From NCBI GenBank assembly GCA_964627195.1, contig CAZVJU010000002.1, positions 1-60,613 of the forward strand: 60,613 bases of DNA, in the 5' to 3' direction. The notes beneath the pieces are model-generated. The model was not told the origin of the DNA, did no database searches, and saw nothing but the letters and a program-made list of their open reading frames with translations. This DNA comes from an uncultured Gammaproteobacteria bacterium. Its GTDB lineage: Bacteria > Patescibacteriota > Microgenomatia > UBA8517. The translations under genes and the position numbers were made by a program. Of this stretch, positions 10,801-40,099 are shown in pieces; positions within the stretch are counted from its first letter, which is position 1; each line of letters opens with the position of its first letter.

Positions 10801-11500
10801 CTGGTGTAAAAGTGACTCTTGTATCTCCCAGCCACTCAAAACGTCCGGCAACTTCAGGGTTAATAGCAAAATTTCTTTCGACTGAGGCTCTATGCATTTT
10901 TCTATCAAATTGCACTTCGAAATTGGAGTCTAAAGGTATCGATTCACCCTCATTTCCTGGAAATGTCACAACGATTTTCGGTGGAAGAAAAAGTTTGCCG
11001 TAGCTCAAAATAAGATAAACAACCGTAACTGCAGCTGCGGGTTTTATAGCCATTCTTAGTCGATCTTTGAATGATGACTCTTTAAAGTTCCTTAGCCAAT
11101 TTACTATTTTTTGCAAAGATCGAATGACTAACGGCTGAACTTTTGAAACAAAAAGCTTCTTCAAAAAAGCAAATACTCTCAGAAAAACCCGGGGCCGAAA
11201 GTACCCAAGCACACTTGCAATCAAAGCTAGACAGAAAGCAATAAACCTGATGAATTCTTTCTGAGCAAACAGATTTTTTAAAATGTAATCAAAACTTCCT
11301 ACTGGAACTTTTATCTTGGTATAGCTACTTCCCGCCTCAACAGCCAAAAGTAAAGCTACCAAAATTAGAAGATGCCGCAATGACTTTCCTCTTCCTGACT
11401 GAACAAGGGTCTTTAGCTTATTAAAAATAGCATTAGGAGTAACCGCACCAAAAAACTGCGAAGTTTGTTCCTGCGAAGGATCTTGCCCTGTTTCAGCCAT
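4817..11500 (-). CDS. giant membrane-anchored thioester alpha-2-macroglobulin family protein with embedded Hint domain
   Basis: Thioester motif CNEQ (YYCNEQII). Post-bait motif FLDTAYW...KLPDNLTTWRL. Repeated Ig/MG-like modules and three N-terminal hydrophobic helices. Start moved from 11650 to ATG 11500, which lies 5 nt (CCAAT) after the pbpC stop and 12 nt after AAGGGGGG; the longer ORF would overlap pbpC by 145 nt. Confidence 0.9.
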   Translation of the reverse strand: MAETGQDPSQEQTSQFFGAVTPNAIFNKLKTLVQSGRGKSLRHLLILVALLLAVEAGSSYTKIKVPVGSFDYILKNLFAQKEFIRFIAFCLALIASVLGYFRPRVFLRVFAFLKKLFVSKVQPLVIRSLQKIVNWLRNFKESSFKDRLRMAIKPAAAVTVVYLILSYGKLFLPPKIVVTFPGNEGESIPLDSNFEVQFDRKMHRASVERNFAINPEVAGRFEWLGDTRVTFTPDKPFEIARKYEVEVGSMAMSAFFIPKFFPQKIAFETLGHPKVILASPQIEAPEVGSPITVMFDRAMIPLTSADEKESQLPAFTLSPEVEGEGGWLGTTAYQFRPAKPLKLATTYTYTVPAGMKAKDNGELHEDFGFSFSTVRPRVLGTSPSDNYNYASPTASVSATLNMPIRLDSARESFHLFRLEGEVRNEVPVSIRINKLYVGMYPVKALEREVWYEARIDAGLLAIEGENGLEHPYTWKFKTAPLPKIIATNPGDGSKEVEQEHRIEVSFVSPMDEKSFKDNVIIAPQPDRKPSTYFSSYSGKHSLSIDTYLGRSSDYTITIKGNVEDQHDVPLGQDYTFSFRTAAYKPSITIIPSGTYFASFNQEIVPRIVAKVVNVNDVTYKLYKLKRNDFLAIYKIHISGPWEQRNLQSYDPSKHELVREWKEEFETDQNIPVHVITKVEKGNGEKIDPGFYFLDARIGNGNHDNLVMVVSKSSLTLKTSPSQALVWAVNSSTGEVVKDMDIEIVRLGSSLGKSGKTNTDGVFKVDGEFRSERGGYVSYENPIIAFAKGGGDEAVVIDAWQKGIQPYEFGLPSYYDYQERDDYRASENLKVYIVLDRPIYRPGQKVYYKGVVRRDKDGIYELLDQGSQVQVSVQDARGKEVFRDESPLSSFGTFSGFFDLSGEGSVGFYTINATVLGNGFSQQFQVEEYRKPDFSVEVSADKPDYTDKEVVDASVTAAFFFGSPVDHAPIKWTLTTSDSSFRWQKDLRFEFGDNDSYWYRPWWFYRSYNYYSGEKVAEGTGTTDKDGNYSLKLPLNISDKETNQTMRLEAIVTDVSNQAIANSKEFVIHQAGLHVGVKPERYSGKAGQESRVELVAVTIDGQTLKDIPVKVSFYKRTWDYVREQDPDTEEFYWTNKATDTFISAVEVVTGELGRATASFVPPEGGSFRVVAEASDSQGRMTKSAAQLWISGFGVNSPQENHDRIVIVPDKDEYAIGDTAQVIASLPYENMTGLVTIERGSVYDYKIVKLTSDNQAFDLSITERYSPNAFISASFIKAGKEVKDPPHFKMGVAEIRVDNPKTEVNLELSTPKERFSPGEEMEVNLTTKDGTGANVKTEVAVALVDEAVWSLARAELADIYQTFYNPRNLSVLTANDLTVSMDRLNENVNLGAKGGSGGGCFTGETPILMSTGTYKAIQDVAAGDSVLTREGENSQTMVSARVSEVFVHDVSEYFLLNGKLKVTGVHRLFTKKGWLAVNAITPEDELLDANGLWVKVESIKKIIEPVRVYNLKVENYHTFIAGNIWVHNQKDGGPETVREKFLDTAYWNAHVETDDNGQGHFKVKLPDNLTTWRLIGIAVSKNTSVGDSVKKILVTKDVLIQPLLPRFISVGDKPKLGMVVHNNTGSSSTVSTEISLTGLSVVGTSKKTTTIAADTSQKIYWDTEVKNIKEAEVVLRAEGGGFSDSVKIKIPVISYYTPEVVATSGEAKDVGDEKVFLPANIVPDQGSLEVSLSPTLGSGVQDAASYLLSFPYYCNEQIINRVIPAIQLLALAKESGMEKIGGYDKYVLENIVTDGIQRLTNLQRPDGGWGWWASYDANPYLTAMIIDGLLDAQENDFTVPESTIESGMTYLKREMDKQELGLENIVYLASVYSRGKTLDSGILSNLMDRRWQMDELGKAYLLRTLQRGGGSRRDVTRLMDELVAMTVKTNTTAHWEIAKRKWHAMSGNITLTSVMMEALVDNNPKHPFVPDITRWLMQARYDGHWQTTKETSSAVRAIVTMLKERREGKPKEFWKISLAGLTQKEGAFEENDLMKQVVEQFSLAEIAKERNVPVKIEKSGKGALYYNMNLKYFLPFEEVEPLDQGLVVIRDFVDRNGRVIRNSKLNAGDELWIRLIILTAATTHHVIIEDKLPAGIEAVNESLATTSLLNVEKLSIPKDRSPLYFRHHEVRDDRVVLFAETLPTGVYEYTYRVRPTTPGRYHHPPAQAYNMYIPDISGHSSGGWMEVSD
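6236..6247 (-). other. thioester motif CNEQ of the A2M
   Basis: Codons TGT AAT GAA CAG read on the minus strand within SFPYYCNEQIINR. Matches the CxEQ thioester signature of the A2M/C3 family. Confidence 0.8.
6923..7309 (-). other. Hint / bacterial intein-like domain (129 aa) inside the A2M coding sequence
   Basis: Begins GGSGGG|CFTGETPILM (block A Cys). Contains VTGVHRLF (TxxH block B) and VYNLKVENYHTFIAGNIWVHN (blocks F/G ending His-Asn). The next residue is Gln, not Cys/Ser/Thr. No endonuclease domain. The coding length is in frame (387 nt). Confidence 0.85.
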
Positions 11501-11505
11501 ATTGG

Positions 11506-13764
11506 TTAGTAACCCCCCTTGTATTCTAGCACCAAGAAATTTATTGGGGATAGTAGCACCTTTCCCTTCCCCGCGATTCCCACTTCTGCCTTCAGTGTAT
11601 GACTTCCCGCAGTGGGAGTCCAATGACACTCTTTCAAAATGCTTCCACAATCGCTTTCCATTAAGTCTTGGCCGTCAATCACCCATAAAACACTCACAAT
11701 TTTTTCCTCCGTCGACAGTTCAAAAACAATTTGTTCATCTGCCTTGGCACCAATCTCGAAAACAGAATTTGGCAGTGGATTAAGTATCTGTACTTGAGAG
11801 TTTTTGAAGTATGTTTGTTTTTCGGTAAGTGGCGAATACGCTGTTGGCTCCGTTCCGGAAATAAAAGTTTCGATATATTTCTGAGTACAAGCATCACCCG
11901 GTAAAAGACCGTCCCACGCACAAATTTCCAAATGGTCCAAACCCTCCGGCTCATTGAAACCCCCGACGTCTTCAAATTTTAGTAGCTCTTCAAAGACCTG
12001 GTTCCAAATTGGAGCTGCACCAGTCACTCCAGATATTTCCTGCATAGGATGATTATCAGCATTTCCCACCCATACACCCACCGTAAAGTTTGGAGTATAT
12101 CCAATTGTCCAATTATCATGCCAGTCTGTTGTTGTCCCTGTCTTTACAGCTGCTTCTTGTGATAAAACCAGGGGGTTTTTCTCCCCAAACGTAGGGATTC
12201 TTGCTTTTTTGTCTTTCAAAATATCAGTAACAAGCCAGGCAACTTTTTCATCAAGAACTTTATTGGGACTTATCTTTTCAAATTCATACACTAATTCCCC
12301 ATCGCTATTTTCTATTCTTTCTATCAAGTGTGTCGGCAAAAAACCACCTGCGCGGGCAAATGTCGCATACAAATTTGTCAATTCCAGTAACGTTATTTCT
12401 CCACCACCCAAGGTAAGAGCCAAGTCGTAGTCCCCCACTCTTTGCATGCCAGTTACGCCCATTCTGTGAGAAAGGTTCAAAAAATTTTCAAGCCCGACTC
12501 TCGATAGCATTTCAACTGCCGGCAGGTTGTAGGAAGAAGCAAATGCCTCGCGCACAAGGATAATCCCACGGTAATGACCATCGTAGTTATGAGGCAAAAA
12601 TCCTCCACCTTCATTAGTCTTATAAACTTTGGGCTTATCTTCAATTGCAGTTGCGGCAGTTGCAATACCCTTTTCAAAGGCGGCGGCATAAGTAACAGGC
12701 TTTATTGCAGAACCAGGCTGGCGTAACGCTGTTGCCATATTGTTCTGTCCTTGAATCGCTTCAGCAAAATAATCAACACTTCCCAAAAGTGTCCAAATGG
12801 CTCCTGTACTATTGTTAATAATCACGACCGCCGCATTAGTTAAGTCATGCTTGAGGGTAAGAGCATCAACCCGTTTCTTAGCGATATCTCTGACTAGCCT
12901 GTACCACCCCGAGTCAAGTGTTGTATGAACAGAAAGACCTTCGTTGGAAGAAATACCTATTTTTTCGATTTCCTCCAAAATCATCTGAGCAGCATGAGGT
13001 GCAACAACTTCAAGAGCGTGAATCGTGTCCGGCAGCCGTTCTTCCTTTGCTCGCTCATACCTTTCTTCGGTGATGAGCTTTTTTGCAAACATCTCGTCAA
13101 GAATCGCATTTTTTTTCTGGTTTGACCCTTGGGGATTAGTTATCGGGTCAAACTTTGTGGGATTGGCTATCATTCCTGCAAGTAAAGCGGACTGGCCCAA
13201 AGATAAATTATCTACACTCTTCCCAAAATACAGTCTTGAGGCAGCTCCAACTCCATATATACCTCTACCAAAATACATTGTATTTAGATACCTCTTAAGA
13301 ATTTCTTCCTTCGAAGAAGTATAAGACAACCGCACCGCCATTAAGATTTCCCTCACTTTCCTAATGAGACTTACTTTTGCTGGTTTTTGAGGTGAAATTA
13401 CACTGAACCGAACGACTTGTTGAGAAATAGTACTTGCACCAGAGACAATAGCTCCTTCCCGGATATTTTGACCAATCGCTCGAACTATTGCCAAAGGATC
13501 GACTCCAGAGTGATACCAAAATCTCTCATCCTCTGTTACAACAACTGCGTCTTTTAACTCTTGTGGAATCCTTTCAATTGGTACAAACTCTTGGTGGCCA
13601 ATACTAGTTGACGACTCGTAGATTAGAATTTCATTTCTGTCGAAGACTTTTATGGTTCCCTTAATATGTGGGGTCGGGTCTGTCCAAAACCAAAGAAAAA
13701 TTAACCCTGTTAAAAAAAACAATAACAGTAACTTAGTAAGGTGAGATAAAAGAAAGTGCTTCAC
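11506..13764 (-). CDS. pbpC: bifunctional penicillin-binding protein, PBP1C-like (GT51 transglycosylase + transpeptidase + C-terminal domain)
   Basis: GT51 motifs (EDERFWYHSGVD, RKVREIL). Transpeptidase motifs SAIKP (SxxK), SSYN (SxN) and KTGTT (KTG). N-terminal TM helix. Sits immediately upstream of the A2M gene, like the E. coli pbpC/yfhM pair. Confidence 0.85.
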   Translation of the reverse strand: MKHFLLSHLTKLLLLFFLTGLIFLWFWTDPTPHIKGTIKVFDRNEILIYESSTSIGHQEFVPIERIPQELKDAVVVTEDERFWYHSGVDPLAIVRAIGQNIREGAIVSGASTISQQVVRFSVISPQKPAKVSLIRKVREILMAVRLSYTSSKEEILKRYLNTMYFGRGIYGVGAASRLYFGKSVDNLSLGQSALLAGMIANPTKFDPITNPQGSNQKKNAILDEMFAKKLITEERYERAKEERLPDTIHALEVVAPHAAQMILEEIEKIGISSNEGLSVHTTLDSGWYRLVRDIAKKRVDALTLKHDLTNAAVVIINNSTGAIWTLLGSVDYFAEAIQGQNNMATALRQPGSAIKPVTYAAAFEKGIATAATAIEDKPKVYKTNEGGGFLPHNYDGHYRGIILVREAFASSYNLPAVEMLSRVGLENFLNLSHRMGVTGMQRVGDYDLALTLGGGEITLLELTNLYATFARAGGFLPTHLIERIENSDGELVYEFEKISPNKVLDEKVAWLVTDILKDKKARIPTFGEKNPLVLSQEAAVKTGTTTDWHDNWTIGYTPNFTVGVWVGNADNHPMQEISGVTGAAPIWNQVFEELLKFEDVGGFNEPEGLDHLEICAWDGLLPGDACTQKYIETFISGTEPTAYSPLTEKQTYFKNSQVQILNPLPNSVFEIGAKADEQIVFELSTEEKIVSVLWVIDGQDLMESDCGSILKECHWTPTAGSHTLKAEVGIAGKGKVLLSPINFLVLEYKGGY

Positions 13765-16268: not shown

Positions 16269-16985
16269 TTAGTTTGTTGAATGCAGAGCATAACCTCCCT
16301 TGGTTGATATAATCATCAACCCCAGTTTATCAATTTCGGTTCGAAGAGTGGAAATTGTTTTGTATATTAAAGAATATGAAGGATTTTCTCCCCTAACTTT
16401 ATACTTTGAGAGTTCGGCAATAGTTTGAATATCAACAGGCTTCCCAACGTTGCTAATAAGAATGTTTAAAACTTCCTTTTCTCGCATATTGAGGGAGGCT
16501 AGTATGTTGTTTTTTTCTATCTTTGCTTTTACAAAATCATTTTTCCGTAACTTACTACTTACATTTTGTAGATATCCTGCTACTTCGAGTAAGTTTTCCT
16601 TGACGGTTCCCGTGAACTCATAGTTGTAAATTTCTTGAGGCTTTATCCATCTATACTCAGAGTTCTTTTCACTAGCAAGACGAATATCTCCTGATATATA
16701 TCTTACTTCGTACACAAAACCCACAGCTTCCTGATTGTTATCATCTTCATAAAAGAAGTTATACGTCTGGAAAATCCTTTCTGGTTGGATAATAATACCA
16801 GCCTCCTCAAATACTCCCCTTCTGATAGCAGTTTCCGGTGTTTCTCCGCTTCTTACACTAACAGAAACAATAGACCACATATTAGGGTGGTGTGATAAAT
16901 TACCCGACCGTTTTAGTATAAGTAACTCATCCCCTTTTTTAACCACCGCTGACACAAAAACAATAAATTTGTGACGCAACTTCAT
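16269..16985 (-). CDS. Nudix domain fused to OmpR/PhoB-type winged-helix DNA-binding domain
   Basis: Degenerate Nudix box SGETPETAIRRGVFEEAGI in the N-terminal half. The C-terminal half (EKEVLNILISNVGKPV...IYKTISTLRTEIDKLGL..STKGGYAL) resembles the Trans_reg_C wHTH. No receiver domain. Confidence 0.65.
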   Translation of the reverse strand: MKLRHKFIVFVSAVVKKGDELLILKRSGNLSHHPNMWSIVSVSVRSGETPETAIRRGVFEEAGIIIQPERIFQTYNFFYEDDNNQEAVGFVYEVRYISGDIRLASEKNSEYRWIKPQEIYNYEFTGTVKENLLEVAGYLQNVSSKLRKNDFVKAKIEKNNILASLNMREKEVLNILISNVGKPVDIQTIAELSKYKVRGENPSYSLIYKTISTLRTEIDKLGLMIISTKGGYALHSTN

Positions 16986-17092
16986 TTATTTTTCAAATCC
17001 TGAAAACTAATGTGATTGTACGGCAGTATTGGGAATAATACCAGTAAATATATGAATTAAAACTTTATCTATACTAGCTCTAACAAGAAACT

Positions 17093-17671
17093 ATGGAACG
17101 TGACCATAACGATATTTCTCGCATACCGAAGTTCATCCATCATATTGAATCACTAAAGCACAATAAACGATTTACTACTAATCCCTTTGTCGAGCGAAAA
17201 GACACGGTTGCCTCCCACTCATGGCGTGCAAGCCTGCTCTTTTTATCCTTTGAAGGATTATTACCAGAGACTATTAGCAGACAGAAAGTATACGAGTTAC
17301 TTACGATGCATGACCTTACTGAGTTAGAAAAGGAAGGTACCAAAGCACTGGGATTCAGAAATGAAAAAGAGAAGATAAAAGAAGACCGGGAAGACGACTT
17401 CTCCCAATTTTCATATTTAGCTGAACCCCTCTACAAAAAACTTAGAGATCTGTGGAGCGAATATAAAGAGCAAAAGTCGGTTGAATCCAAAATCGCAAAG
17501 ACTATAGAAAGACTTGAGAGCAATTGGACTGCAATCGAAAGTGTCGATGCGGTTAAAGATAAAACTCACCGCCAAAGAACCATTGAATATGTTACAGGGC
17601 TCCTCGGAGCAGACCGTCACCTTGATATGCTCATTAATTTACAACTTGAGGAAATTAAAAGTATCAAATAA
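17093..17671 (+). CDS. HD-domain phosphohydrolase (YfbR-like nucleotidase family)
   Basis: H...HD metal-binding pattern (VASHSWRASLL ... LTMHDLTE). Size about 190 aa. Confidence 0.6.
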   Translation: MERDHNDISRIPKFIHHIESLKHNKRFTTNPFVERKDTVASHSWRASLLFLSFEGLLPETISRQKVYELLTMHDLTELEKEGTKALGFRNEKEKIKEDREDDFSQFSYLAEPLYKKLRDLWSEYKEQKSVESKIAKTIERLESNWTAIESVDAVKDKTHRQRTIEYVTGLLGADRHLDMLINLQLEEIKSIK

Positions 17672-17966
17672 TCATGGAAGAAAGAGGAGCACTACCAACT
17701 CCAAAAGAAGAACCAAAAAACAAAAGGTTGTCTTACTTGTAGATACGAAGGCTTATGAAGCAGAAATTGTCGCCACAGTTGGCCCCCTAGCCGACTCAAT
17801 CTTCCTACTGCATATAATAAAGGAAGAGACAGAGGAAACTGTATAGATCAAAGAGATTAATAGATTAGACTTTTATTAAAAACTCCTGAGGATTTGCCCA
17901 TAATCGAATTGAATCAAACGAGGTTCTCATAAAATCTAACTTAAAAAAGTAGAAGTAATAAACTTT

Positions 17967-18374
17967 CTAATTCCTATTTTGTAATCTGAAAAATCCTACT
18001 AACTTCTCCTTATGATCATAAGCAATGTCTAAATTATTTAAGTCGTTTACAGTTACAAACTTCACTTCTCCTATTTCGTCATTGAGATTAATCTCACCAC
18101 TTATAGAACCAGTAAAATAAATTACATTCCAAAATTGACCAGGGATAGACTCCTTATCTGTCTCTACATAGTAAAATTTAGGATCAAAGTCTACTCCCAA
18201 TTCTTCTTTTACTTCTCTAATAATAGTCTCGTTGGGAACTTCCCCTTCCTCGGGTCTCCCTCCAACCAAAGCCCACTTTCCAACAAAATCTCCGCTAGCT
18301 CTTTTGCCCAATAAAACTTTACCTTCTTCGTCCACGATAATTGCACGAACAACAGTTTTAATATTGTTTCTCAT
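17967..18374 (-). CDS. Nudix hydrolase
   Basis: Canonical Nudix box GGRPEEGEVPNETIIREVKEELGV. Confidence 0.85.
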   Translation of the reverse strand: MRNNIKTVVRAIIVDEEGKVLLGKRASGDFVGKWALVGGRPEEGEVPNETIIREVKEELGVDFDPKFYYVETDKESIPGQFWNVIYFTGSISGEINLNDEIGEVKFVTVNDLNNLDIAYDHKEKLVGFFRLQNRN

Positions 18375-18401
18375 GATTTGTTGCTTAAGAAAATTTTCAG
18401 A

Positions 18402-19043
18402 CTAGGCTATTTTCTCCATTTTACTCCACTTTTTTCCCTTAGCATCCACAATCATTAATGCATGGTAATTTTGGAAAAGTGTTGTGTCTTTCGTCAAAGA
18501 TCTTTCGAACATTTCTTTTAAAGAGTCGTAATTATCCGTTTCCACACTTAGTTCATATTTCTTTACAAACCGTTTCGTGTATTCGTCAATAACGAAACTT
18601 GGTTTATCGAGTGCGTACAAAAGAAGTGTGTCTGCTGTCTCCGGACCAATGCCATAAACCTTCAGAAGTTTTTCTCTCACCAATTTTGTATCTTCACTTA
18701 TCATCCGCTCTAATCCACCATAGTTATTCATAACAAAAGAAGAGAATGCGTGAAGCCTTTTCGGTTTTGTGGTGTAAAAGCCGGCCGGACGAATAAGGTC
18801 AGTTAACTTTGTTAAATCGGAAATACCAGCAATTATTTCTAAGCTCAAAAGGTCAACCTTTAACAGATTTCTAAGGGCTATATCAGCATTCCGCCAACTC
18901 GTCCGTTGGGTAAGTATTGCACCTAAGGCAATTAATTCACGGGTTTTTAAACTTTTATCTTTCGAACACCAATCCGGCCACAACTTTTCGGGATCCCCAT
19001 GTTCTTTAAGGAGAATTTTGTACAAAGAAAAAATCTTAGGCAT
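18402..19043 (-). CDS. HhH-GPD / endonuclease III-domain protein
   Basis: ILTQRTSWRNA and the helix-hairpin-helix VYGIGPETADTLLLYAL. No obvious FeS Cys cluster. Confidence 0.65.
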   Translation of the reverse strand: MPKIFSLYKILLKEHGDPEKLWPDWCSKDKSLKTRELIALGAILTQRTSWRNADIALRNLLKVDLLSLEIIAGISDLTKLTDLIRPAGFYTTKPKRLHAFSSFVMNNYGGLERMISEDTKLVREKLLKVYGIGPETADTLLLYALDKPSFVIDEYTKRFVKKYELSVETDNYDSLKEMFERSLTKDTTLFQNYHALMIVDAKGKKWSKMEKIA

Positions 19044-19623
19044 TTAACTTTTTCGCTAGGTTTTTCTTCTTCATCAACAAAGCCACATAGCCATAGTTAT
19101 CAATTTTAGTTAAATTGAGTTTCAGATTTCTCGCGAGAGATTTCAACTCTACCAAAGTTTTTTTACAACCCCTGATGTCCTTCTTTGCTTCAATTTCAAC
19201 GAAATACCCAAGGTTTTTGACATTATCTAAAGCAAACTCAAAGCTTCCTTTATATACATACGTTTCCCTTCTTTTGTTAACTGTAATGAATTTCTTAAAA
19301 TTCAAAGCTCTTAGTATTTTTATTAGCTGATAGGGGTTTTCGATTTTGGTCTCGTACTCATCAGCATAAAGACGCTCGCCCTCTCGACTATAGTGGTGGT
19401 ACTTATAGTTAAAACTCCCAGATGTTCCCCTTTTTCTAACTCTTAAATACTCTAGAGGATGTTTAAGTGTTAAAAAATCCCGATGAGGAGAATTGAAATA
19501 ACTATCTATTTCTTGAGATGAAGAAACAAATCTAGCGTTCTTCTTTAAAAATCGCCTAATTTCCTCAAAAAGTTTTTTACTTACAGGAATTTTAATTTCC
19601 ACCTCAACACCATCTTTAGCCAT
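19036..19623 (-). CDS. CYTH-domain protein (triphosphate tunnel metalloenzyme / CyaB-like)
   Basis: ExExK signature (VEVEIKIP) at the N-terminus and YFVEIE near the C-terminus. Overlaps the downstream HhH-GPD gene by 8 nt. Confidence 0.7.
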   Translation of the reverse strand: MAKDGVEVEIKIPVSKKLFEEIRRFLKKNARFVSSSQEIDSYFNSPHRDFLTLKHPLEYLRVRKRGTSGSFNYKYHHYSREGERLYADEYETKIENPYQLIKILRALNFKKFITVNKRRETYVYKGSFEFALDNVKNLGYFVEIEAKKDIRGCKKTLVELKSLARNLKLNLTKIDNYGYVALLMKKKNLAKKLNA

Positions 19624-32258: not shown

Positions 32259-32852
32259 TCAGCTAACATCCAAAGTTCTCCAAAGATACCAGCTGGCAAC
32301 GGTCCTATAAGGTTTCCACCGCTCGGCAAATTTTGCCATTCCTTCGCCTTCAAATTTCCGACCGACTACTTTTTCAAAACCTTTTTTAATTCCCAGGTCA
32401 TCATCAGGAAAAATATCGCCTCTTCCTAAAGAAAACATGAGAAACATTTTGGCAGTCCACCGACCTATACCTTTTACGGCAACCAGTTCTCTCATCACTT
32501 CATCATCCGGCAAACTATTTAACCTTGTCACTTGTAACTTGTTGCTTGTTACTTTCTCTGCCAAATCTTTAATTGAGGCTACTTTTGCCCATGCCATTCC
32601 GCAATCTCTCAATTCTTGGTCGGAAAGAGCCAAAACTTTTCTAGCGGTTAACCTCCCTTTAATCTTTCCTTTCAAACGTTCATAAATTACGTCAGCAACT
32701 CTACCTGACAATTGTTGTCCTATTATTTCTCCAACCAATCCCTGAAAATAGTCGAGGTGAATTCTCGGTTTTATCTTACACTGGCCGTACTTTTTGATAA
32801 GCGGCCCAATATGCTTATCATTCAAAAGAAATCTTTCAGCCTCTTCCCACAT
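32259..32852 (-). CDS. DNA-3-methyladenine glycosylase II (AlkA-like HhH-GPD)
   Basis: IIGQQLSGRVA, the HhH VKGIGRWTAKMFLMF, and the catalytic Asp context FPDDDLGIKKG. Confidence 0.75.
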   Translation of the reverse strand: MWEEAERFLLNDKHIGPLIKKYGQCKIKPRIHLDYFQGLVGEIIGQQLSGRVADVIYERLKGKIKGRLTARKVLALSDQELRDCGMAWAKVASIKDLAEKVTSNKLQVTRLNSLPDDEVMRELVAVKGIGRWTAKMFLMFSLGRGDIFPDDDLGIKKGFEKVVGRKFEGEGMAKFAERWKPYRTVASWYLWRTLDVS

Positions 32853-32935: not shown

Positions 32936-33676
32936 ATGAAAAGGGTGGTTCTTATTCTTCATGGCTGGCCGCGCATTGATTCAGACAGTTTAATCTTCAA
33001 GAATTTTAGGAGAAATAAATACACAATAATTTGTCCTTATCTTTTTTCAGACACTTTCCCTTTTGATCTTTCCGGGATAACAAAACAGGTAAAATTGTCT
33101 CTTCAAGGATTTAACCCAGATGCAATCGTGGGTATTTCATTAGGAGGATTAATTCTCCCTAAAATTGCCCGCAATTACCCAAAAACAAAACTTATATTTG
33201 TAGCTTCAGGAGTAACTGCTAGCCTCCAGTCAAGTGTATTTAGATTCCTATTGTAAATTTTCGCAAACTCACAACTTATCACTTTGGCTATCAAACTTCC
33301 TCACCCAATACTCTCTGTGTTCTATACACTTCTTGATCCCTTTTACGGCAACGAAAAAGAAAGGCCTAATTATCTTAAAGATAAAATGTTAAATCTTGAG
33401 GCAATAAAATCTATCTCTTTGAAGAAACACCGCGAAATTCTCCGTTTCATTATCCAAGTTGATAATTCAGCCATTCTTTCGACTTTGGTGCAAAAGACTC
33501 TGATAATATCGGGCAACCATGATCCTCTAATGCCCGTACAAGAAGGGAAAAAGTTACGCTCGCTACTAAAAAACAGTAGGCTTGTTAAAGTAAGCGGAGG
33601 ACACTTTGAAGTTGTTGGTATTTCAGAAATTAAGGAAGTAGAAAGATTTTTATCGTCACAGTCCGTATACCACTGA
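32936..33676 (+). pseudogene. alpha/beta hydrolase split by one in-frame TAA (33254..33256)
   Basis: ORFs 32936..33256 (HGWP, nucleophile elbow GISLGG) and 33284..33676 (GNHDPLMP ... GGHF) are in the same frame, separated by a single TAA and 9 sense codons. Confidence 0.5.
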
Positions 33677-33696: not shown

Positions 33697-34350
33697 CTAT
33701 GTTTTTCTAAGACTTTTCTTATTTTCTGCCCAAAATGCAGCTGAAAACCAGATTGTCAATATAACCAGCAAAAAAGTTGGGCTTTCAAAACCTTGACGGA
33801 TAGGTTTAGAAAAAATCGAAAGCACGTAAGCTATGAGTAACCCATACGGGAACATAAATAAGGGTACATAAAATATTTGTTTGAAATTTCTTTTTTCCAA
33901 TCCTGCATTTAAAAAGTAAAAAGCTAAAAAATTCGGATGTAACATTGAAACGACTAATCCTCGAGAAAGCATTTCGGATTCTTTTACAAGATTTTTCTTG
34001 TCCCAAAAGTTTCGGGTTGCCAAAAATCTGCCAAGATGGTAATTAATAAAAGAGGTCGCTGTTAATGTCACAGACACAATTACACTTATAGACACAAGAG
34101 ATATCAAGGATTTATCAGAGAAAAATACTGTTAAGGCAATTATAAAAGCTCCCGGAACGTAAAGACAAACGTAGGCAATCCCCTCAAAAAAGGTAGCTAA
34201 GATAAGCCCCAATAATCCGTAGTGCTGATATAATTTTTCCAATATTTCAACAAGTTCTTTCGGAGACGGAATAATGTGTATGCTCCACAAAATAATTAGA
34301 AGTAAATAAAATCCCAAAGCAGAGAGAGGTAAAACCGGGATCTTAGTCAT
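33697..34350 (-). CDS. DedA/VTT-like integral membrane protein
   Basis: Multi-pass membrane protein. FFEGIAYVCLYVPGAFII resembles the DedA re-entrant motif. Confidence 0.45.
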   Translation of the reverse strand: MTKIPVLPLSALGFYLLLIILWSIHIIPSPKELVEILEKLYQHYGLLGLILATFFEGIAYVCLYVPGAFIIALTVFFSDKSLISLVSISVIVSVTLTATSFINYHLGRFLATRNFWDKKNLVKESEMLSRGLVVSMLHPNFLAFYFLNAGLEKRNFKQIFYVPLFMFPYGLLIAYVLSIFSKPIRQGFESPTFLLVILTIWFSAAFWAENKKSLRKT

Positions 34351-34456
34351 GCTTTAAGTATGCCACATATCTTAATTAACAAAAAACAAATAATTAAGCT
34401 GAGAAAATATCATCAAAATTGAGAAATGAAGAAGTACTTTCTCAGGTGTTAATAAT

Positions 34457-34492
34457 TTAGTAATCCATTCCCCCCATACGGCTTGCGGGCAT
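34457..34492 (-). repeat. degenerate remnant of a groEL 3' terminus (copy C)
   Basis: The minus strand reads ATG CCC GCA AGC CGT ATG GGG GGA ATG GAT TAC TAA = MPASRMGGMDY-stop. Compare the groEL end [12 protein letters not shown]-stop. The segment is intergenic. Confidence 0.7.
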
Positions 34493-34518
34493 GACTGGTT
34501 TTCTTTTCTTATTCCTAA

Positions 34519-35043
34519 TCAAAAGGGAATTTCATCGTTCACAGCCTTCTTTTCCTCCTCACTTCCATAAGCATAAACTCCATAAGCCTTAATATCTCTC
34601 ACAGACTCGATATTGAAAATATAAACCCTGTCAAAGATTGTTGTTGGAAAATCATGGCGATCGCGGGTTAATAAATAAAGGCTGCGATATCTTTTCAAGC
34701 AAGATGCGAGCAGCAAGTCAGTTAAAGACACTCCCTCCATAAATTGCCTGTATTGCTCAATTACACCAACAATATATTGTTCCGCTTGATTATCGAATGG
34801 AAGAACTACACTTACAATCTCGTTAAAGTATTTTTCTTTCTTTTTAACTACGTCGATCGTCTTAGAACGTATAAACTCATATTTGACCAAATTAATTGAG
34901 GTTAACACAATATTATTACTTTTAAACTCTGTGACTAAACCTTCAAAGTCTTCTATCCGAGAGTAGGAGTCGATGAAAAAATTCGTATCCAAAAGAAATG
35001 TGGAATTGCTAAGAGGCTTAGGAATTTGGTGTGACTGGGCCAT
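34519..35043 (-). CDS. PIN-domain protein (VapC-like toxin candidate)
   Basis: N-terminal FLLDTNFFID (first acidic residue) and C-terminal LLTRDRHDF, as in PIN nucleases. Confidence 0.6.
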   Translation of the reverse strand: MAQSHQIPKPLSNSTFLLDTNFFIDSYSRIEDFEGLVTEFKSNNIVLTSINLVKYEFIRSKTIDVVKKKEKYFNEIVSVVLPFDNQAEQYIVGVIEQYRQFMEGVSLTDLLLASCLKRYRSLYLLTRDRHDFPTTIFDRVYIFNIESVRDIKAYGVYAYGSEEEKKAVNDEIPF

Positions 35044-35182
35044 ACTTCCTCTCTTCTTCTTCTACAGCTTTTCGAAGCTCCTTTGCAAGCTTGACAAACT
35101 TTTTTACATCAAAAGGTTTCAACTTCTTAGGCCTTAAAGAAGAGGCGCTTTCCCTTTGTATTTTTATTTTTTTTCTTGCCAT
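35018..35182 (-). CDS. possible 54-aa antitoxin-like small protein
   Basis: Hand-translated MARKKIKIQRESASSLRPKKLKPFDVKKFVKLAKELRKAVEEEERKYGPVTPNS. Overlaps the PIN gene start by 26 nt, a typical TA layout. No motif support. Confidence 0.3.
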   Translation of the reverse strand: MARKKIKIQRESASSLRPKKLKPFDVKKFVKLAKELRKAVEEEERKYGPVTPNS

Positions 35183-35230
35183 AGTAAATTTAGTATAACA
35201 TATTAACCCAAAGCTAATCCGGAAGGTGTT

Positions 35231-35647
35231 CTAGATTTTTATCTTCTTAGCAAAATAGGCTTCCACTAAGTTATGAGTATTAGGAGAAAGTTGATCCCTC
35301 ATTTTTAGCAACTCGTTCCAAGAAAAATATTTCAGGTCATCAAATTTATCTTTTTCCATAACTTTAGGCTCGCCTAATCTAACTCTTGCCAGAAACCAGG
35401 TATAGGTCATCACATAGTCATCTTCTACAAAATCTTTCCATCCCAGTCTTTTAACAATATCCACGTCCACCCCAAGTTCTTCTTCGATTTCCCGCTCCGC
35501 GGCTTTCCTGTGATTCTCGCCATTCTCTAGTTTTCCTCCTGGAGTTTCCCATTGTTTTCTAATTGGAGTATTCCTGTGAAGAAGTAAAATTTTCCCTTTG
35601 TCGTTCAGAATTACACACCCCGCAAGATGGAGCTTTTTATACTTCAT
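35231..35647 (-). CDS. Nudix hydrolase (MutT-like)
   Basis: Nudix box GGKLENGENHRKAAEREIEEELGV. Confidence 0.85.
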   Translation of the reverse strand: MKYKKLHLAGCVILNDKGKILLLHRNTPIRKQWETPGGKLENGENHRKAAEREIEEELGVDVDIVKRLGWKDFVEDDYVMTYTWFLARVRLGEPKVMEKDKFDDLKYFSWNELLKMRDQLSPNTHNLVEAYFAKKIKI

Positions 35648-35685
35648 ACACAGATTTTAACAAAAAACATAAGGGTTCCTAAAAA

Positions 35686-36300
35686 TTATAAACATCCAAG
35701 TTTACGTAGCTTCACTTTTAGTTCTGAAGGCAAATCGATCAGAACATTAAATAAAATAGTTTTCATTCCCATCTTTTCTGCTGGTTCTAAATTCTTTATT
35801 TCATCATCAATAAAAACACACTCTTCGGCTTTACACCCTATTAATGAGATTGTTTTCCTATATATTTGTTGATCCGGTTTCTTCATACCCAGTCGATAAG
35901 ATAAAAACAAGTCGTCAAAGTAATCGTAAAGTCCAGTTTTACTGTTATGGTTGTTACTCATCTCAGTAGTATTAGAAAAAAGAAAGACTTTGTACTTAGT
36001 GTGTAAATCCTTAATAATCTCTAATACTTCTTTATTTGGTTTAGCTAATTCGGAATAATATTTCATCCAAAGGCCTTTGACTTCCTTAACCGTTTTATTA
36101 ATCCCCAAAGTTGAAGATAGTGAATTTATTAATTATTCTGTTGATAATCTTCCAGTAAAATAATCGTCTATATATTTTCCATATTCTTTTATGGTTATTT
36201 CAACAGGTTGCCTGTAAATCCGAGATAATACTTCCGGGATTACTTCTTTGGGGTGTTGATAAATCACTCCACCAAAATCAAAAAGTATTGATTTAATCAT
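35686..36300 (-). pseudogene. HAD-superfamily hydrolase interrupted by an in-frame TAA (36133..36135)
   Basis: ATG 36300 gives MIKSILFDFGGVIY (HAD motif I), then TAA at codon 56. The same frame continues into ORF 35686..36108, which carries motif II (LFSNT) and motif IV (VFIDDE). Confidence 0.6.
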
Positions 36301-36348
36301 AGTTTATTATATCGCTAAAAAGAGATTGAGGGTCGTCCGAAGATTAGC

Positions 36349-36392
36349 TAGTAGTCCATTCCTCCGCCCATTCCACCACCCGGCATGGCCGG
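36349..36392 (-). repeat. remnant of the groEL 3' terminus (copy B)
   Basis: TAGTAGTCCATTCCTCCGCCCATTCCACCACC (32 nt) is identical to 38042..38073, with similarity continuing about 12 nt further. The minus strand reads [14 protein letters not shown]-stop. Confidence 0.9.
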
Positions 36393-36417
36393 CTCTCTCT
36401 ATTTTTCATTTACAAAC

Positions 36418-36708
36418 TTAACGAATAGAACGAAATTCCTCTTTTACTTTCTCATCCAAATACATTTTAACCAAGGACTGATAAGGCACATCCTTTTTAT
36501 TGGCAATCATCTTTAAGGAATCCAAAAGGGATTCAGTAACTCTTAGTGTTATAGTCTTTGTAGACATCTTTAAGTTTGGAAAGCTTGGATTTACTATCGC
36601 TTTACTCCAATCTACATAGTCGGTACTATCGTGTGTTGCCCAAAAATCTGCTTCCTCGTCTTCGTTTTTGAATTTAGGTATTGGTTTAAGTTTTTTCATA
36701 AATTTCAC
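36418..36708 (-). CDS. BrnA-type antitoxin (CopG/RHH-like)
   Basis: DEEADFWATHDSTDY and the C-terminal VPYQSLVKMYLDEKV resemble BrnA. Overlaps the upstream BrnT gene by 23 nt. Confidence 0.7.
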   Translation of the reverse strand: MKFMKKLKPIPKFKNEDEEADFWATHDSTDYVDWSKAIVNPSFPNLKMSTKTITLRVTESLLDSLKMIANKKDVPYQSLVKMYLDEKVKEEFRSIR

Positions 36709-37000
36709 CTCCTGGTTGGCTAAATTGTTTTCTCTCTTTTTTACTTTGATCCCTAGCCGTTACAACTCGAATTGTCTTGCCTCTAAATGTAAATACTACA
36801 AAAAGCAGTCTTTCATTCCTCGTCCGACCTAGTACCTCAAATCTTTCCTCTATTTGAGAATGAGCATTATCTTCATTTACCAAAAACGGCTTATTAAAAA
36901 ATACCTGCTCGCATTCTTTATAGTTCACGCCATGTCTTCTAACATGCTCTAAATTACCCTTATCCCAATCAAAACCTTCTAGCTTCTTAAAATCAAACAT
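36686..37000 (-). CDS. BrnT-type toxin (DUF497 ribonuclease)
   Basis: FDWDKGNLEHVRRHGVNYKECEQVF and IRVVTARDQSKKERKQF match the BrnT/DUF497 pattern. Confidence 0.8.
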   Translation of the reverse strand: MFDFKKLEGFDWDKGNLEHVRRHGVNYKECEQVFFNKPFLVNEDNAHSQIEERFEVLGRTRNERLLFVVFTFRGKTIRVVTARDQSKKERKQFSQPGGEIYEKT

Positions 37001-37082
37001 GTCATTATGTATTTAATCATACAATACATAAATATCTCTTGTCAACTTATTAAGTCAAATAAATAATGTTATACTCGGAGAA

Positions 37083-38044
37083 ATGTCCGGCTTTAAAGAA
37101 TTAACAACAACTATTGCCGAAAAATATCAAAATATTCATTCCTGCCTAATAGGAAATTCCGACCAAATATTTTTTGAGAAATACTTTCCTGGTGAAGACG
37201 GAAGAAATGGCTTTATCAAAACTAACCGTAATTATCTCCATGATTTAAGATCTGCAACTAAAAGTGTAACTTCCATCCTTGTTGGTATAGCTTATGATAA
37301 AAAATTAATTTCTTTGGACGACCCTATTACAAAGTATTTATCAGGGTGGGTTCCTAACAATAGACACTCTTTGGAAAATATTAAGATTATAATCTTCTCA
37401 CTATGACTTCGGGGATTGACTGGAATCAAAGTGGATCAAGAAAGAGAAACGAAGTTGACTCGGAAGTTGAAATGGAGAAAAATAACAACCCAATTGAATA
37501 TATCTTATCTAAGAAGTTGACTTCTAAACCTGGAGAGATGTTTAATTACTGCTCGGGAAACACAGTTCTCCTCGGTAAAATTGTTGAAATCGCATCTGGA
37601 ATACATCTGGATAGGTTTATGCAGAGACATTTATTCGGTCCACTAGATATTAAGGAATATAAATGGTGGAATATTGCAAAGGAAGTTTACTGGACTCATG
37701 CAGGTTTACAAATGAAACCGGTGGACATGCTTAAAATTGGTCAGGTACTACTGAATAATGGAATATTTAAAGGTGAAAGAATTTTATCAAAGGAGTGGTT
37801 AGAAAAACTTAAAACACCTAGTAAAATTAATAAAGAATATGCTCTCCATTGGTGGTTAGCAAATCACAATATTGGTAATAGAAAAATAAATAGTTACTTT
37901 GCGGCCGGTAACGGTGGACAAAGAATCTTTGTTATACCTGGCTTAAATTTGACGGTCGTTTTTACAGCAGGTAACTACCACTCACCACTACAAACCCAAC
38001 CGAACGAAATATTAGAAAAAGAGATACTTCCGAAGTCGATTTAG
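37083..38044 (+). pseudogene. beta-lactamase-family serine hydrolase, frameshifted near 37385..37406
   Basis: The first ORF carries SxxK (SATKSV). The conserved LLTMTSG segment continues in another frame (ORF 37403..38044). The two ORFs overlap by 4 nt in different frames. Confidence 0.6.
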
Positions 38045-39690
38045 TAGTCCATTCCTCCGCCCATTCCACCACCTGGCATAGCAGGCATCTCTTTCTTTTC
38101 CTCAGGAAGATCGGTGATTAACGCTTCTGTAGTTAATACCATGGAGGCAACACTTGCCGCATTCTGGAGAGCGCTTCGTGTTACCTTAAGCGGATCAAGA
38201 ATGCCAAACTTTGTCATCGAGCCAAACTCGTTTGTAAGAGCGTTAAATCCATAATCCACATCTTTCTTTTTCTCAATTTCCTTTAAGATTATCCAGCCGT
38301 CGCCCTCTCCTGCATTTATTGCCAACCACCGCAGTGGTTCACCTAAGACATCGTAGACTATATCAATACCGACTTGCTCATCTTTATTTTCTCCTTTAAT
38401 TTTAGCATTCTCTCCTCTTAGAATTTCTCTTGCCCTCAAAAATGCCACTCCTCCGCCCGGCAAAATGCCTTCCTCAATTGCAGCTTTAGTTGCACCTACC
38501 GCATCTTTCACTCGCTCTTTTTTATCGTTTAATTCGATTTCAGTTGCTGCTCCGACATTTATTTGAGCAACCCCACCCGAAAGTTTAGCGAGGCGCTCTT
38601 CAAATTTTTCACGATCAAAGTCTGAGTCTGTTTCCGCAATCTGGCGTTTAATAAGAGCAATTCGCCCCTTTATTTTGGCCTTGTCCCCCTTACCTCCAAT
38701 AATTCTGGCGTTATCCTTGTCTGCCCAAATTTTGTCAGCCTGACCTAAATCAGTTATTTCGATTGATTCATAAGTTCGCCCTGTGTCTTCCGAAATTACA
38801 GTTCCCCCCGTTAAAATCGCAATATCTTCAAGTAGTTCTTTTCTTCTATCACCAAATCCAGGAGCTTTAATCGCAAGTACATTAAAAGTTCCTTTGAGCT
38901 TATTAACTACGAGTGTTGCCAGAGCTTCTCCTTCCACTTCATCGGCAATGATAACCAAATTCTTAGAGACTTTGACAAATTTTTCAAGAAATGGAAGCAT
39001 TTCCTGAATTGAAGTTACTTTCTTGTCTGTTAAAAGAATATAAGCATTTTCAATTTCTGCTTCCATTCTCTCAGGATTTGTTACGAAATAAGCAGAAACA
39101 TATCCCCTATCAAATTCCATTCCTTCCTTATATTCAATATCTATAGTTAAACCTTTGCCTTCTTCAACTGTTACAACCCCATCCCGTCCTACTTTGTCCA
39201 AAGCTTCAGCAATTTTTGCACCAATTGCCTCATCTCCGGCTGATATTGTAGCCACCTGTTCGATTTCTTCTTTATTTTTAATTGGCTTGGAGATTTTCTT
39301 AAGTTCAGTTACTACCGCCTCAACTGCCTTGTCAATTCCCTTCTTAACAACCATCGGATTAGCGCCGGCTGTAACATTTCTCATCCCCTGCGCAGTCATC
39401 TTTTGCGCAAGAAGGGTTGCGGTTGTGGTACCATCACCTGCAACATCGTTTGTTTTGTCGGCAGCTTCCTTTACCAACTGGGCCCCCATATTTTCAAATG
39501 GATCTTTCAGTTCGATGTCTTTGGCAACCGTAACTCCGTCATGGACGATATTCGGAGCCCCCCATTTTTTATCGAGTGCAACGTTTCGACCTTTAGGGCC
39601 AAGCGTAGTTACAACTGCTTTTGCAACAACATCAATCCCTTTCATAAGAGATTGTCGCGCTTCGTCCGAAAATTTTAATTGTTTAGCCAT
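38041..39690 (-). CDS. groL: chaperonin GroEL (Cpn60)
   Basis: [26 protein letters not shown] and the C-terminal GGM repeat [12 protein letters not shown]. Confidence 0.97.
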
Positions 39691-39745: not shown

Positions 39746-40099
39746 TTACTCCACGATTGCGAGTATATCATCAAACTTTGCGAATAGATATTCTTTGCCT
39801 TGCAGTTTTACTTCATTTCCACCCCATTTTTTATAAATTACAACATCTCCTACTTTGGCCGGCGATTTTCTCTTAGTGCCGGAGTCTGTAATTTCATCTT
39901 CCCCCATAGCTAAAATTTTGCCTTGTTGTGGTTTTTCTGAAACACTATCGGGTAGGTATATGCCAGAAGCTGTCTTTTCCTCAGCCTCCAAAGGTTCTAT
40001 AACAACATAGCCTGGAGCGGGTTTAAGCCCACCTGCCCGCTTCGCAGCGAGGCGAGCCGGCGAGGCAGAGTTCAATTTAGAAGTTTTCGTTTTCGCCAT
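39746..40099 (-). CDS. groS: co-chaperonin GroES with a basic N-terminal extension of about 22 aa
   Basis: GYVVIEPLEAEEKTASGIYLP, GKILAMG and VIYKKWGGNEVK are GroES-like. No internal start codon would remove the extension. Confidence 0.9.
   Translation of the reverse strand: MAKTKTSKLNSASPARLAAKRAGGLKPAPGYVVIEPLEAEEKTASGIYLPDSVSEKPQQGKILAMGEDEITDSGTKRKSPAKVGDVVIYKKWGGNEVKLQGKEYLFAKFDDILAIVE

Follow-up and report, generated by a model that had tools for sequence, protein, structure and literature searches.

Co-oriented remnants of the groEL 3' end and apparent stepwise gain of accessory genes behind groEL in a Candidatus Woesebacteria bacterium

Serial displacement of gene 3' ends without an integrase is known from effector-immunity arrays of type VI secretion systems (T6SS), for which homology-facilitated illegitimate recombination was suggested (Kirchberger et al., 2017, PMC5361080), and the same process and proposed mechanism are attributed to rhs loci in that paper's citation of Jackson et al. 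(2009). The present analysis concerns a locus of similar layout, located behind the chaperonin gene groEL in a 60,613-nucleotide (nt) stretch of DNA (contig CAZVJU010000002.1, positions 1 to 60,613; hereafter, the window), where three co-oriented copies of the groEL 3' end delimit two small groups of accessory genes, islets 1 and 2. Rhs, contact-dependent inhibition (CDI) and T6SS arrays share several features with what is proposed here: the conserved upstream part of the gene would act as a homology anchor, incoming DNA from a relative would provide a new 3' end together with the adjacent genes, and the earlier 3' ends, together with the genes beside them, come to lie downstream without a change of orientation, so that repeated events build an array with the oldest unit farthest away and no integrase present. 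In those arrays and in the groEL islets alike, the mechanism is inferred. The differences concern the gene itself, a housekeeping chaperonin whose tail keeps its function here but a polymorphic toxin with variable C-terminal domains there, as well as the pieces displaced and gained, since at this locus the former measure 36-60 nt and the cargo comprises hydrolases, a Nudix protein and toxin-antitoxin pairs, not cognate immunity genes.

Staphylococcal phage-inducible chromosomal islands (PICIs) integrate at the 3' end of groEL, with an attachment (att) site that covers its last 18 bp (PMC8125051). The likeness extends to the gene and the end involved, to an att site over the last codons that keeps groEL intact, to direct repeats and to the existence of empty-site strains. 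However, PICIs, which are roughly 15 kb long, carry an integrase, an excisionase and phage-interference genes and are packaged by helper phages, whereas the units described here measure 1.6-1.9 kb, no recombinase or phage gene was found in them, their host belongs to the candidate phyla radiation (CPR), and their repeats have allelic arms on both sides of the core. In Campbell-type insertion-duplication, circular DNA with short homology enters a chromosome by a single crossover, a process used for mutagenesis in naturally transformable bacteria. It predicts the topology of islet 1, with a segment of about 90 nt duplicated on each side and hybrid copies that are identical at the crossover, but it is mainly a laboratory tool, and a natural source of the circle, such as a self-ligated fragment or a looped-out donor islet, is hypothetical here. 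T-even phages, in turn, harbour free-standing homing endonuclease genes beside conserved genes. A parallel is provided by another of the loci compared (L058; loci are designated by L numbers), in which a gene with helix-turn-helix (HTH) and LAGLIDADG domains sits exactly between the new and the old groEL tails, and by a homologue of this gene next to metG in the window, whereas the groEL islets of the window contain neither an endonuclease gene nor a relic of one. By these comparisons, the groEL islets would work like 3'-end displacement arrays and would resemble the PICI insertion at groEL only superficially.

In the window, groEL (38041-39690, minus strand) is preceded by groES (39746-40099) and encodes a protein of 549 amino acids (aa), as judged from its open reading frame (ORF), its translation and the Pfam Cpn60_TCP1 match of an identical protein. 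This GroEL is 64-92% identical to those of Woesebacteria/Microgenomates, and the host is on this evidence assigned to Candidatus Woesebacteria (Microgenomates, CPR). The degenerate motif GGNATGGAYTAYTAR, taken from the groEL end, has exactly three occurrences in the 60.6 kb, all of them minus-strand, where 0 would be expected, in agreement with the initial annotation, a reading of the sequence alone that had reported three co-oriented copies of the groEL 3' end. The nearer of the two downstream copies, remnant 2, is located 1693 nt downstream of groEL and shares with it 32 identical nt (38042-38073 and 36349-36380), the sole two matches of this core in the window at up to 3 mismatches, with 0 in 100 shuffles. 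With two core matches and three motif occurrences, the remnants are not part of a generic GGM-coding repeat, a possibility that had been raised beforehand. The stop codon of remnant 2 is TAG at 36348-36350; thus, the 32 identical nt initially reported for this copy stood, but its start, placed at 36349, had to be moved one base to the left, and the repeat turned out to be longer, about 90 nt.

The farther copy, remnant 3 (34457-34512, minus strand), lies 3584 nt downstream of groEL and represents an older displaced groEL end, as judged from translation, pattern count and three-way alignment. It reads MPASRMGGMDY-stop at 34457-34492, and GAAAAGAAA, a possible out-of-frame relic of EEKK codons, would extend it to about 34512. 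Its match to the resident groEL tail is weak (18/20 nt; local alignment score 30 against a shuffle maximum of 26), as befits the more degraded copy described initially, and it fits the groEL tail of the Woesebacterium L014 better than that of its own groEL (25/26 nt). Both remnants are intergenic, as had been stated: remnant 2 is flanked by the stop of BrnA (36418) and the start of HAD (36300), and remnant 3 by the stop of the PIN ORF (34519) and the start of the DedA-like gene (34350). A fourth remnant was sought between the DedA-like gene and the HhH-GPD gene, and none was found. The order is that of a displacement array, with remnant 2, which keeps the 32-nt core, nearer to groEL and remnant 3 farther away and more decayed. 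The whole arrangement recurs at 99.9-100% identity in independent assemblies from several samples and, therefore, is not an assembly artefact.

The duplicated segment reaches beyond groEL. Local alignment delimits a live junction copy (38016-38099, minus strand) that comprises the last ~19 groEL codons, the stop and ~28 nt, and a second copy at remnant 2 (36317-36405, minus strand) that comprises the displaced groEL end and a relic of ~30 nt, as defined by the core match, the alignment and a codon table. The repeat unit thus consists of ~60 nt of tail, the stop and ~30 nt beyond, and the alignment of both copies scores 89, whereas shuffles reach a mean of 16.9 and a maximum of 26. The ~28 nt past the live groEL stop are also the natural 3' end (KEILPKSI-stop) of a convergent beta-lactamase-like (bla-like) gene, the C-terminus of whose protein aligns with the end of its homologues, and the stop codons of the two genes overlap (TTTAGTAG). 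Beside remnant 2, the plus strand reads KEIEGRPKIS-stop at 36319-36351, which resembles the end of a bla-like gene, and remnant 2 would therefore be a fragment of an older groEL/bla-like junction. A corresponding relic beside remnant 3 (EVLSQVLII-stop, compared with EILPKSI-stop) was considered and was too weak to claim.

The differences are unevenly spread over the repeat. Over the 16 codons that adjoin the stop, remnant 2 and the live tail differ at 4 positions (CCA/CCG, GCT/GCC, CCT/CCG and TAA/TAG), all of them silent third positions. Ten codons (32 nt) are identical, the next 3 of 3 codons differ and one ATG codon is absent, while past the stop homology falls to ~60% with indels over ~30 nt; that is, 0 of 32 nt differ in the core against ~40% just past the stop. 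A dead copy left to drift until a live gene had gained 4 silent changes in 16 codons would be expected to show many others, which remnant 2 lacks; the two tails were therefore probably different alleles already when they were joined, and an identical core between diverged homologous arms points to a crossover between two diverged junction copies. Together with the better fit of remnant 3 and of the remnant in L011 to foreign tails, this gives moderate support, from few sites and a small sample, for displaced and current ends being alleles of different lineages and not duplicates that decayed in place. Moreover, islets 1 and 2 have no sequence in common apart from the junction, which excludes a tandem duplication of one unit.

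Comparison with relatives indicates what the locus looked like before these additions. The group has a conserved gene order (VanW, solute-binding protein, groES, groEL, HhH-GPD and M23 peptidase). The more distant L006, L009 and L026 have a groEL stop that overlaps with the start codon of HhH-GPD. Among the closest relatives, with 87-92% identical GroEL, 25-68 nt separate the two genes in L311, L312 and L317, and an intact antisense alpha/beta-hydrolase gene is all that lies between them in L307-L310. By nucleotide synteny, the window has 4.39 kb (38040-33653) that are missing in L307 and 5.19 kb that are missing in L311. The arrangement is, therefore, not shared by all relatives, and empty sites exist in the four nearest relatives as well as in more distant ones, although they are groEL followed by HhH-GPD or by the alpha/beta-hydrolase gene and not, as had been guessed, groEL followed by the HAD or the DedA-like gene. 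Across 60 relatives, the gap between groEL and HhH-GPD ranges from 0 to 5.6 kb and contains Nudix, BrnTA, PIN/RHH, AbiEii, DUF218, SDR and other small genes, with no integrase among them. The junction between groEL and HhH-GPD is thus a variable spot in Woesebacteria that was filled stepwise in the window lineage. These alignments support a gain of about 4.4 kb of accessory DNA behind groEL in at least two steps, probably by serial insertion, and the succession proposed initially, in which the older remnant is farther from groEL and more decayed, is borne out by the empty sites and the lineage-specific DNA.

A further locus bears on where such DNA may come from. L520 has the order groEL, antisense alpha/beta-hydrolase, BrnTA, HhH-GPD, and its BrnTA cassette with promoter (~1960-2629) is 82% identical at the nucleotide level to that of the window (37085-36418), whereas groEL reaches 76% and the hydrolase gene 68%. 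As the identity of BrnTA exceeds that of groEL, the cassette appears to have moved among Woesebacteria within the same hotspot. It occupies a different joint in each, flanked in L520 by the alpha/beta-hydrolase gene and HhH-GPD and in the window by the bla-like gene and remnant 2. L520 would thus be a plausible example of a donor-type arrangement (groEL, antisense hydrolase, BrnTA). The best non-self matches of the cargo were 55% for the bla-like protein and 78% for BrnT (in L520), and no near-identical cargo copy was found elsewhere. Exact-protein matches of GroEL, GroES and HhH-GPD retrieved the same arrangement only, plus a mosaic contig, L089 (JGI 3300025030, Ga0209518_1028307). When compared with window positions 40272-38041, this contig is 100% identical through groES and the first ~980 nt of groEL, to about 38712, past which identity falls abruptly to 60-80% for the rest of groEL, whose tail reads AAPNPAMGGMDY up to the stop and is followed by unrelated DNA. 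L089 could have arisen by natural recombination, the breakpoint lying within groEL, or else be a chimera of metagenome assembly.

The same footprint was found at other groEL loci. A survey of ~400 loci (80 from Microgenomates, 120 genome blocks with a GGGMDY-stop tail, 80 from diverse genomes and 121 metagenome stretches) revealed same-strand downstream remnants of the groEL tail in six lineages, namely the window, L011, L058, L175, L259 and L511. In L011, a remnant of ~20 nt follows an antisense 403-aa membrane ORF and matches the tail of the window (23/24 nt) better than that of L011 itself, and in L058 one of ~36 nt follows the antisense HTH-LAGLIDADG ORF. L175 (Ca. Sulfopaludibacter, Acidobacteria, CAMDKT010000179.1, 1-1798) shows a groEL tail, an antisense small ORF with a PIN-domain ORF, and a second, same-strand copy of at least 243 last groEL codons (at least 730 nt), far larger than any att site. 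The remnant of L259 (11080-11150) is frameshifted and ~75 nt long, and the 4.4 kb that separate it from groEL contain a sodium:dicarboxylate symporter gene and unassigned ORFs. Finally, the metagenome contig L511 (~3870-4250, with groEL on the plus strand) has a remnant of ~100 nt at 190-290 nt downstream with no cargo, a GC-rich terminator-like hairpin of its own after each copy, and an IS3-like ORF beyond. Remnant length thus ranges from ~20 to at least 730 nt across cases, with ~60 nt for remnant 2 of the window.

As a control, 1460 ORFs from 161 loci were examined for downstream same-strand copies of their final 54 nt. Eight remnants were obtained, two of groEL and six of other genes; because genes other than groEL show the same downstream remnants, the footprint is general, perhaps with some enrichment at groEL. 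One of the six (L034, 3417-6271) is a diversity-generating retroelement (DGR) repeat and not an insertion, with a reverse transcriptase (YMDD), an Avd-like ORF and a gene of 420 aa whose 3' end carries a template/variable repeat pair of 41 nt, so that the scan can pick up DGRs; among the islet ORFs of the window, no reverse transcriptase was found. ORFs annotated as '23S rRNA IVP' (Avd-like) also occur behind groEL in L011 and L058. The other five cases involve 3'-end copies of 23-42 nt, at genes that include dnaJ, a cytidylyltransferase gene with an antisense toxin-antitoxin pair and a gene followed by a Fic-domain insert. They are located at L022 16620-17117, L031 1135-1774, L083 4011-4693, L247 10868-12311 and L058 1864-3405, where the inserts are an antisense 64-aa ORF, an antisense pair (DUF433-like and PIN-like), small membrane ORFs, a gene with a Fic domain and, behind dnaJ, 1.5 kb of DNA.

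In four of the cases (window 38041-38044, L058 9638-9641, L022 16617-16620 and L031 1771-1774), the first inserted gene is convergent with the gene behind which it lies, and the stops of the two overlap by 2-4 nt. This overlap may reflect compaction or a joint at TAA/TTA microhomology.

How the repeats arose can be weighed against the genes that accompany them. Two site-specific integrative elements might have entered at an attB overlapping the groEL 3' end, each with a replacement tail, and their integrases might later have been deleted or have been supplied in trans. Such elements would account for direct repeats with an exact 32-nt core overlapping the gene end, for a live groEL that keeps its full tail, for the empty sites in relatives and for the newer insertion being nearer to the gene; the best argument in their favour is that remnants 2 and 3 have similar left ends, and PICIs provide a precedent for integration at the groEL 3' end (PMC8125051). 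Nevertheless, Pfam searches returned no integrase, excisionase or transposase domain among all islet ORFs, in the 28-50 kb stretch annotated via identical contigs or in 20 further window ORFs, with a few ORFs left without any match; this agrees with the earlier remark that no integrase is left. None was found either in the inserts of the other five genomes with the groEL signature (L011, L058, L175, L259 and L511). In addition, an att site should not vary in length from ~20 to at least 730 nt, L511 has no cargo, the signature is also present at unrelated genes, and the islets, at just 1.6-1.9 kb, have nothing in common beyond the junction, and the best non-self homologues of the cargo are 55% (bla-like) and 78% (BrnT) identical. 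The dedicated groEL attB for site-specific elements advanced in the initial annotation is not sustained by the missing integrase, the variable remnant lengths, the cargo-less L511 and the similar behaviour of other genes, and integrative elements of this kind seem an unlikely source of the islets. Less probable still is replacement driven by a homing endonuclease, in which a LAGLIDADG enzyme would have cut the groEL end, repair from a donor would have copied a resistant tail with its neighbours, and the endonuclease would later have been lost. L058 gives this idea its substance, as there the antisense HTH and LAGLIDADG ORF is the sole gene between the new (...GMGEY-stop) and the old (...GGGMDY-stop) tails, with overlapping stops. 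A homologue, a free-standing HTH and LAGLIDADG_3 ORF of 329 aa (Pfam 22.7 bits, cut-off 22.5), is present in the window at 430-1419 on the plus strand, just upstream of metG (1449-2849), with 35% identity to the L058 ORF (E = 3e-53), and its family occurs widely among CPR bacteria and DPANN archaea. However, tblastn with both HTH-LAGLIDADG proteins found no endonuclease gene or relic in the 33.6-38.1 kb of the window that hold the islets, the other groEL cases have no endonuclease, this being a feature of L058 only, and clean homing should leave no displaced tail. Furthermore, the 78 genome loci of the family, distributed over CPR bacteria, DPANN archaea and Chloroflexi, showed no general pattern of flanking repeats. 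We consider homing quite improbable as an explanation for the window.

Events in place would require no foreign tail: a tandem duplication or replication slippage of the groEL end would have been followed by neutral decay and by insertion of unrelated DNA, or the copies would have been kept as terminators or regulatory sites. That the copies are tandem and co-oriented, that a stable hairpin follows remnant 3 and that L511 carries tail-plus-terminator units in tandem without cargo would agree with such an origin. The codon pattern largely refutes it, as 4 silent differences in 16 codons and nothing else are incompatible with a dead copy that drifted as long as the live one, and divergence changes sharply within the repeat, from 0 of 32 nt in the core to ~40% just past the stop. 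The two repeat units share no other sequence, the remnants fit foreign tails better than the resident one, and folds after the groEL stop and after remnant 2 are no better than those of shuffles. An origin purely in place is, thus, very improbable.

The repeats, the empty sites, the allelic remnant 2, the missing recombinase genes and the recurrence at other loci, all of them shown by the comparisons, are best read as 3'-end displacement through insertion-duplication of fragments from related Woesebacteria, kept by their toxin-antitoxin cargo, a reading we hold as slightly better than an even bet. In each step, a short piece of DNA from a related Woesebacterium, starting inside the end of the donor groEL and running into the donor's downstream genes, would have recombined with the resident chromosome via short homology at the groEL stop (~60 nt of tail and ~30 nt beyond). 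The route could have been a single crossover of a circularised fragment (Campbell-type insertion-duplication) or homology-facilitated illegitimate recombination. The outcome would be a fresh functional groEL end beside new cargo, while the previous end would persist farther downstream in inactive form, and an integrase encoded by the element would not be needed. The DedA-like gene would have been gained first; the HAD, Nudix, small ORF and PIN genes would have followed, leaving remnant 3, and the bla-like gene and BrnTA would have come last, leaving remnant 2. The toxin-antitoxin pairs at the islet ends would protect the islets from looping out between the flanking repeats, and this would explain such pairs in the surviving cases L175 and L031.

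Several points weigh against displacement by fragments from relatives. All population contigs carry the full arrangement, and no donor, circular junction or islet-less strain was found among the assemblies; the search for the 32-nt core in metagenomes, suggested initially, gave 0 exact matches across the JGI metagenome collection and revealed no donor or empty-site strain. With ~60-90 nt of imperfect homology, RecA-dependent recombination would operate close to its lower limit. Remnants 2 and 3 both have their left end near the EEKK codons, ~57-60 nt from the stop, as a defined recombination site predicts and random illegitimate joints would not, although the sequence there is A-rich and of low complexity, and too much may be read into the similarity. 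To account for the homology past the stop, one has to make the extra assumption that a relic of a bla-like 3' end was resident before islet 1 arrived. Finally, a recombinase might be encoded by window ORFs outside those screened, or elsewhere in the genome and act in trans.

A bolder version of these events would make the ~90-nt junction itself a portable recombination module, through which small cassettes, kept stable by their toxin-antitoxin pairs, would be looped out in circular form and integrate again behind the same conserved gene in relatives, with host recombination or a trans-acting enzyme as the catalyst. Hints of this, none of them decisive, are the likeness between the left ends of the two remnants, the extension of homology past the stop, the BrnTA cassette shared at 82% in the same hotspot and the overlapping convergent stops in 4 cases, and we regard the idea as speculative and distinctly unlikely. 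If true, it would amount to an integron-like stacking of accessory genes in CPR bacteria and others without an element-encoded integrase. On present evidence, the groEL islets are not a new class of element; they are moderately interesting for the genome dynamics of CPR bacteria.

The wider relevance of the displacement reading lies in how genes are acquired in these organisms. CPR (Patescibacteria) genomes are small, and the window shows few classical mobile elements; because of this, accessory-gene gain in CPR is poorly documented. The locus would constitute a readable record of stepwise gain behind an essential conserved gene, in which the displaced ends date and order the events. The survey suggests that this footprint occurs at ~1-2% of groEL loci across several phyla, and also at other genes. 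Same-strand 3'-end remnants could serve as an annotation-free marker of recent insertions and of allelic replacement of gene ends, and a repeated gene end by itself is not evidence for an att site of the integrase type.

Regarding the cargo, the islets measure 1.6-1.9 kb and have a G+C content of 0.33-0.34, compared with 0.41-0.42 for groEL and HhH-GPD; by composition they look foreign or relaxed, and they are not copies of one unit. Both end in a toxin-antitoxin pair directly before a remnant, the pair of islet 2 being PIN-like and probable. The region contains three pseudogenes, and the cargo is otherwise decaying. The gene assignments made initially held for BrnT, CopG/BrnA, Nudix, the frameshifted bla-like gene and the HAD gene with its premature stop, while that of the PIN protein proved weak. 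The first gene of islet 1 is a beta-lactamase-family serine hydrolase pseudogene (37083-38044, plus strand), convergent with groEL and with Pfam PF00144 matches on both halves. Three-frame translation places a switch of frame near 37392-37400, and its intact homologues, of 319 aa and at most 55% identical, occur in unrelated contexts. It is followed by the BrnT/BrnA cassette (36418-37085, minus strand; BrnT at 36686-37000 and BrnA at 36418-36708), with a promoter-like site TTGACA-18-TATGAT at 37045-37016. Pfam gives 73.1 bits for BrnT_toxin (cut-off 34.5) and 107 bits for CopG_antitoxin (cut-off 28), whereas the NCBIfam BrnA match is below its cut-off (48 vs 60 bits). With both family models matched and the two genes overlapping by 23 nt, this cassette is a predicted type II toxin-antitoxin system.

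Islet 2 begins with a HAD-family hydrolase pseudogene (35686-36300, minus strand; Pfam HAD_2/Hydrolase, NCBIfam HAD-IA) that has an in-frame TAA at 36133-36135, and continues with a Nudix hydrolase of 138 aa (35231-35647, minus strand; Pfam NUDIX, 81 bits). Nudix genes were also found behind groEL in L011, L049 and L014. At the end of the islet (34519-35182, minus strand), a small ORF of 54 aa (35018-35182) with no family match overlaps the PIN-like ORF of 174 aa (34519-35043), which reaches 20.1 bits with Pfam PIN, below the cut-off of 23.6, has no NCBIfam match and is 45% identical to an ORF located 221 nt behind groEL in L049. From their arrangement, both ORFs probably form a toxin-antitoxin pair. 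Just after remnant 3, a hairpin with a T-rich stretch (34399-34445, minus strand) has a predicted RNA fold of -13.8 kcal/mol (z = -3.55), and 0 of 200 shuffles were as stable; it is possibly a terminator that once followed the groEL end of remnant 3. A terminator role was also considered after the groEL stop and after remnant 2 and was rejected on the folds there.

Beyond the hairpin lies a gene for a DedA/VTT-like membrane protein of 217 aa (33697-34350, minus strand), with a weak Pfam VTT_dom match (16.9 bits), which is missing at this position in L307, L311, L312 and L317. The possibility that it is a copy of the upstream VTT gene of L307 was rejected, as identity is 30% over 77 aa. The alpha/beta-hydrolase pseudogene (32936-33676, plus strand) has an in-frame TAA at 33254; read in one frame, it shares 62% identity over 239 aa with its intact counterpart in L307, a 240-aa gene located directly after groEL. 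It belongs to the clade-level backbone outside the islets, as does the gene for the HhH-GPD DNA glycosylase (32259-32852, minus strand), recognised by Pfam on an identical protein and by synteny.

In the rest of the window, a cluster ~15 kb away (16269-19623) groups another Nudix gene (16269-16985) and another HhH-GPD gene (18402-19043) with one gene each of the HD-domain and CYTH-domain types, and echoes the pairing of Nudix and HhH-GPD behind groEL. An ORF of 2277 aa with no assigned function spans 4817-11650 on the minus strand. Near the right end of the window, yidC (56299-57108) and dnaA (58018-59406) are present, a position that puts the groEL hotspot roughly 20 kb from the likely replication origin.

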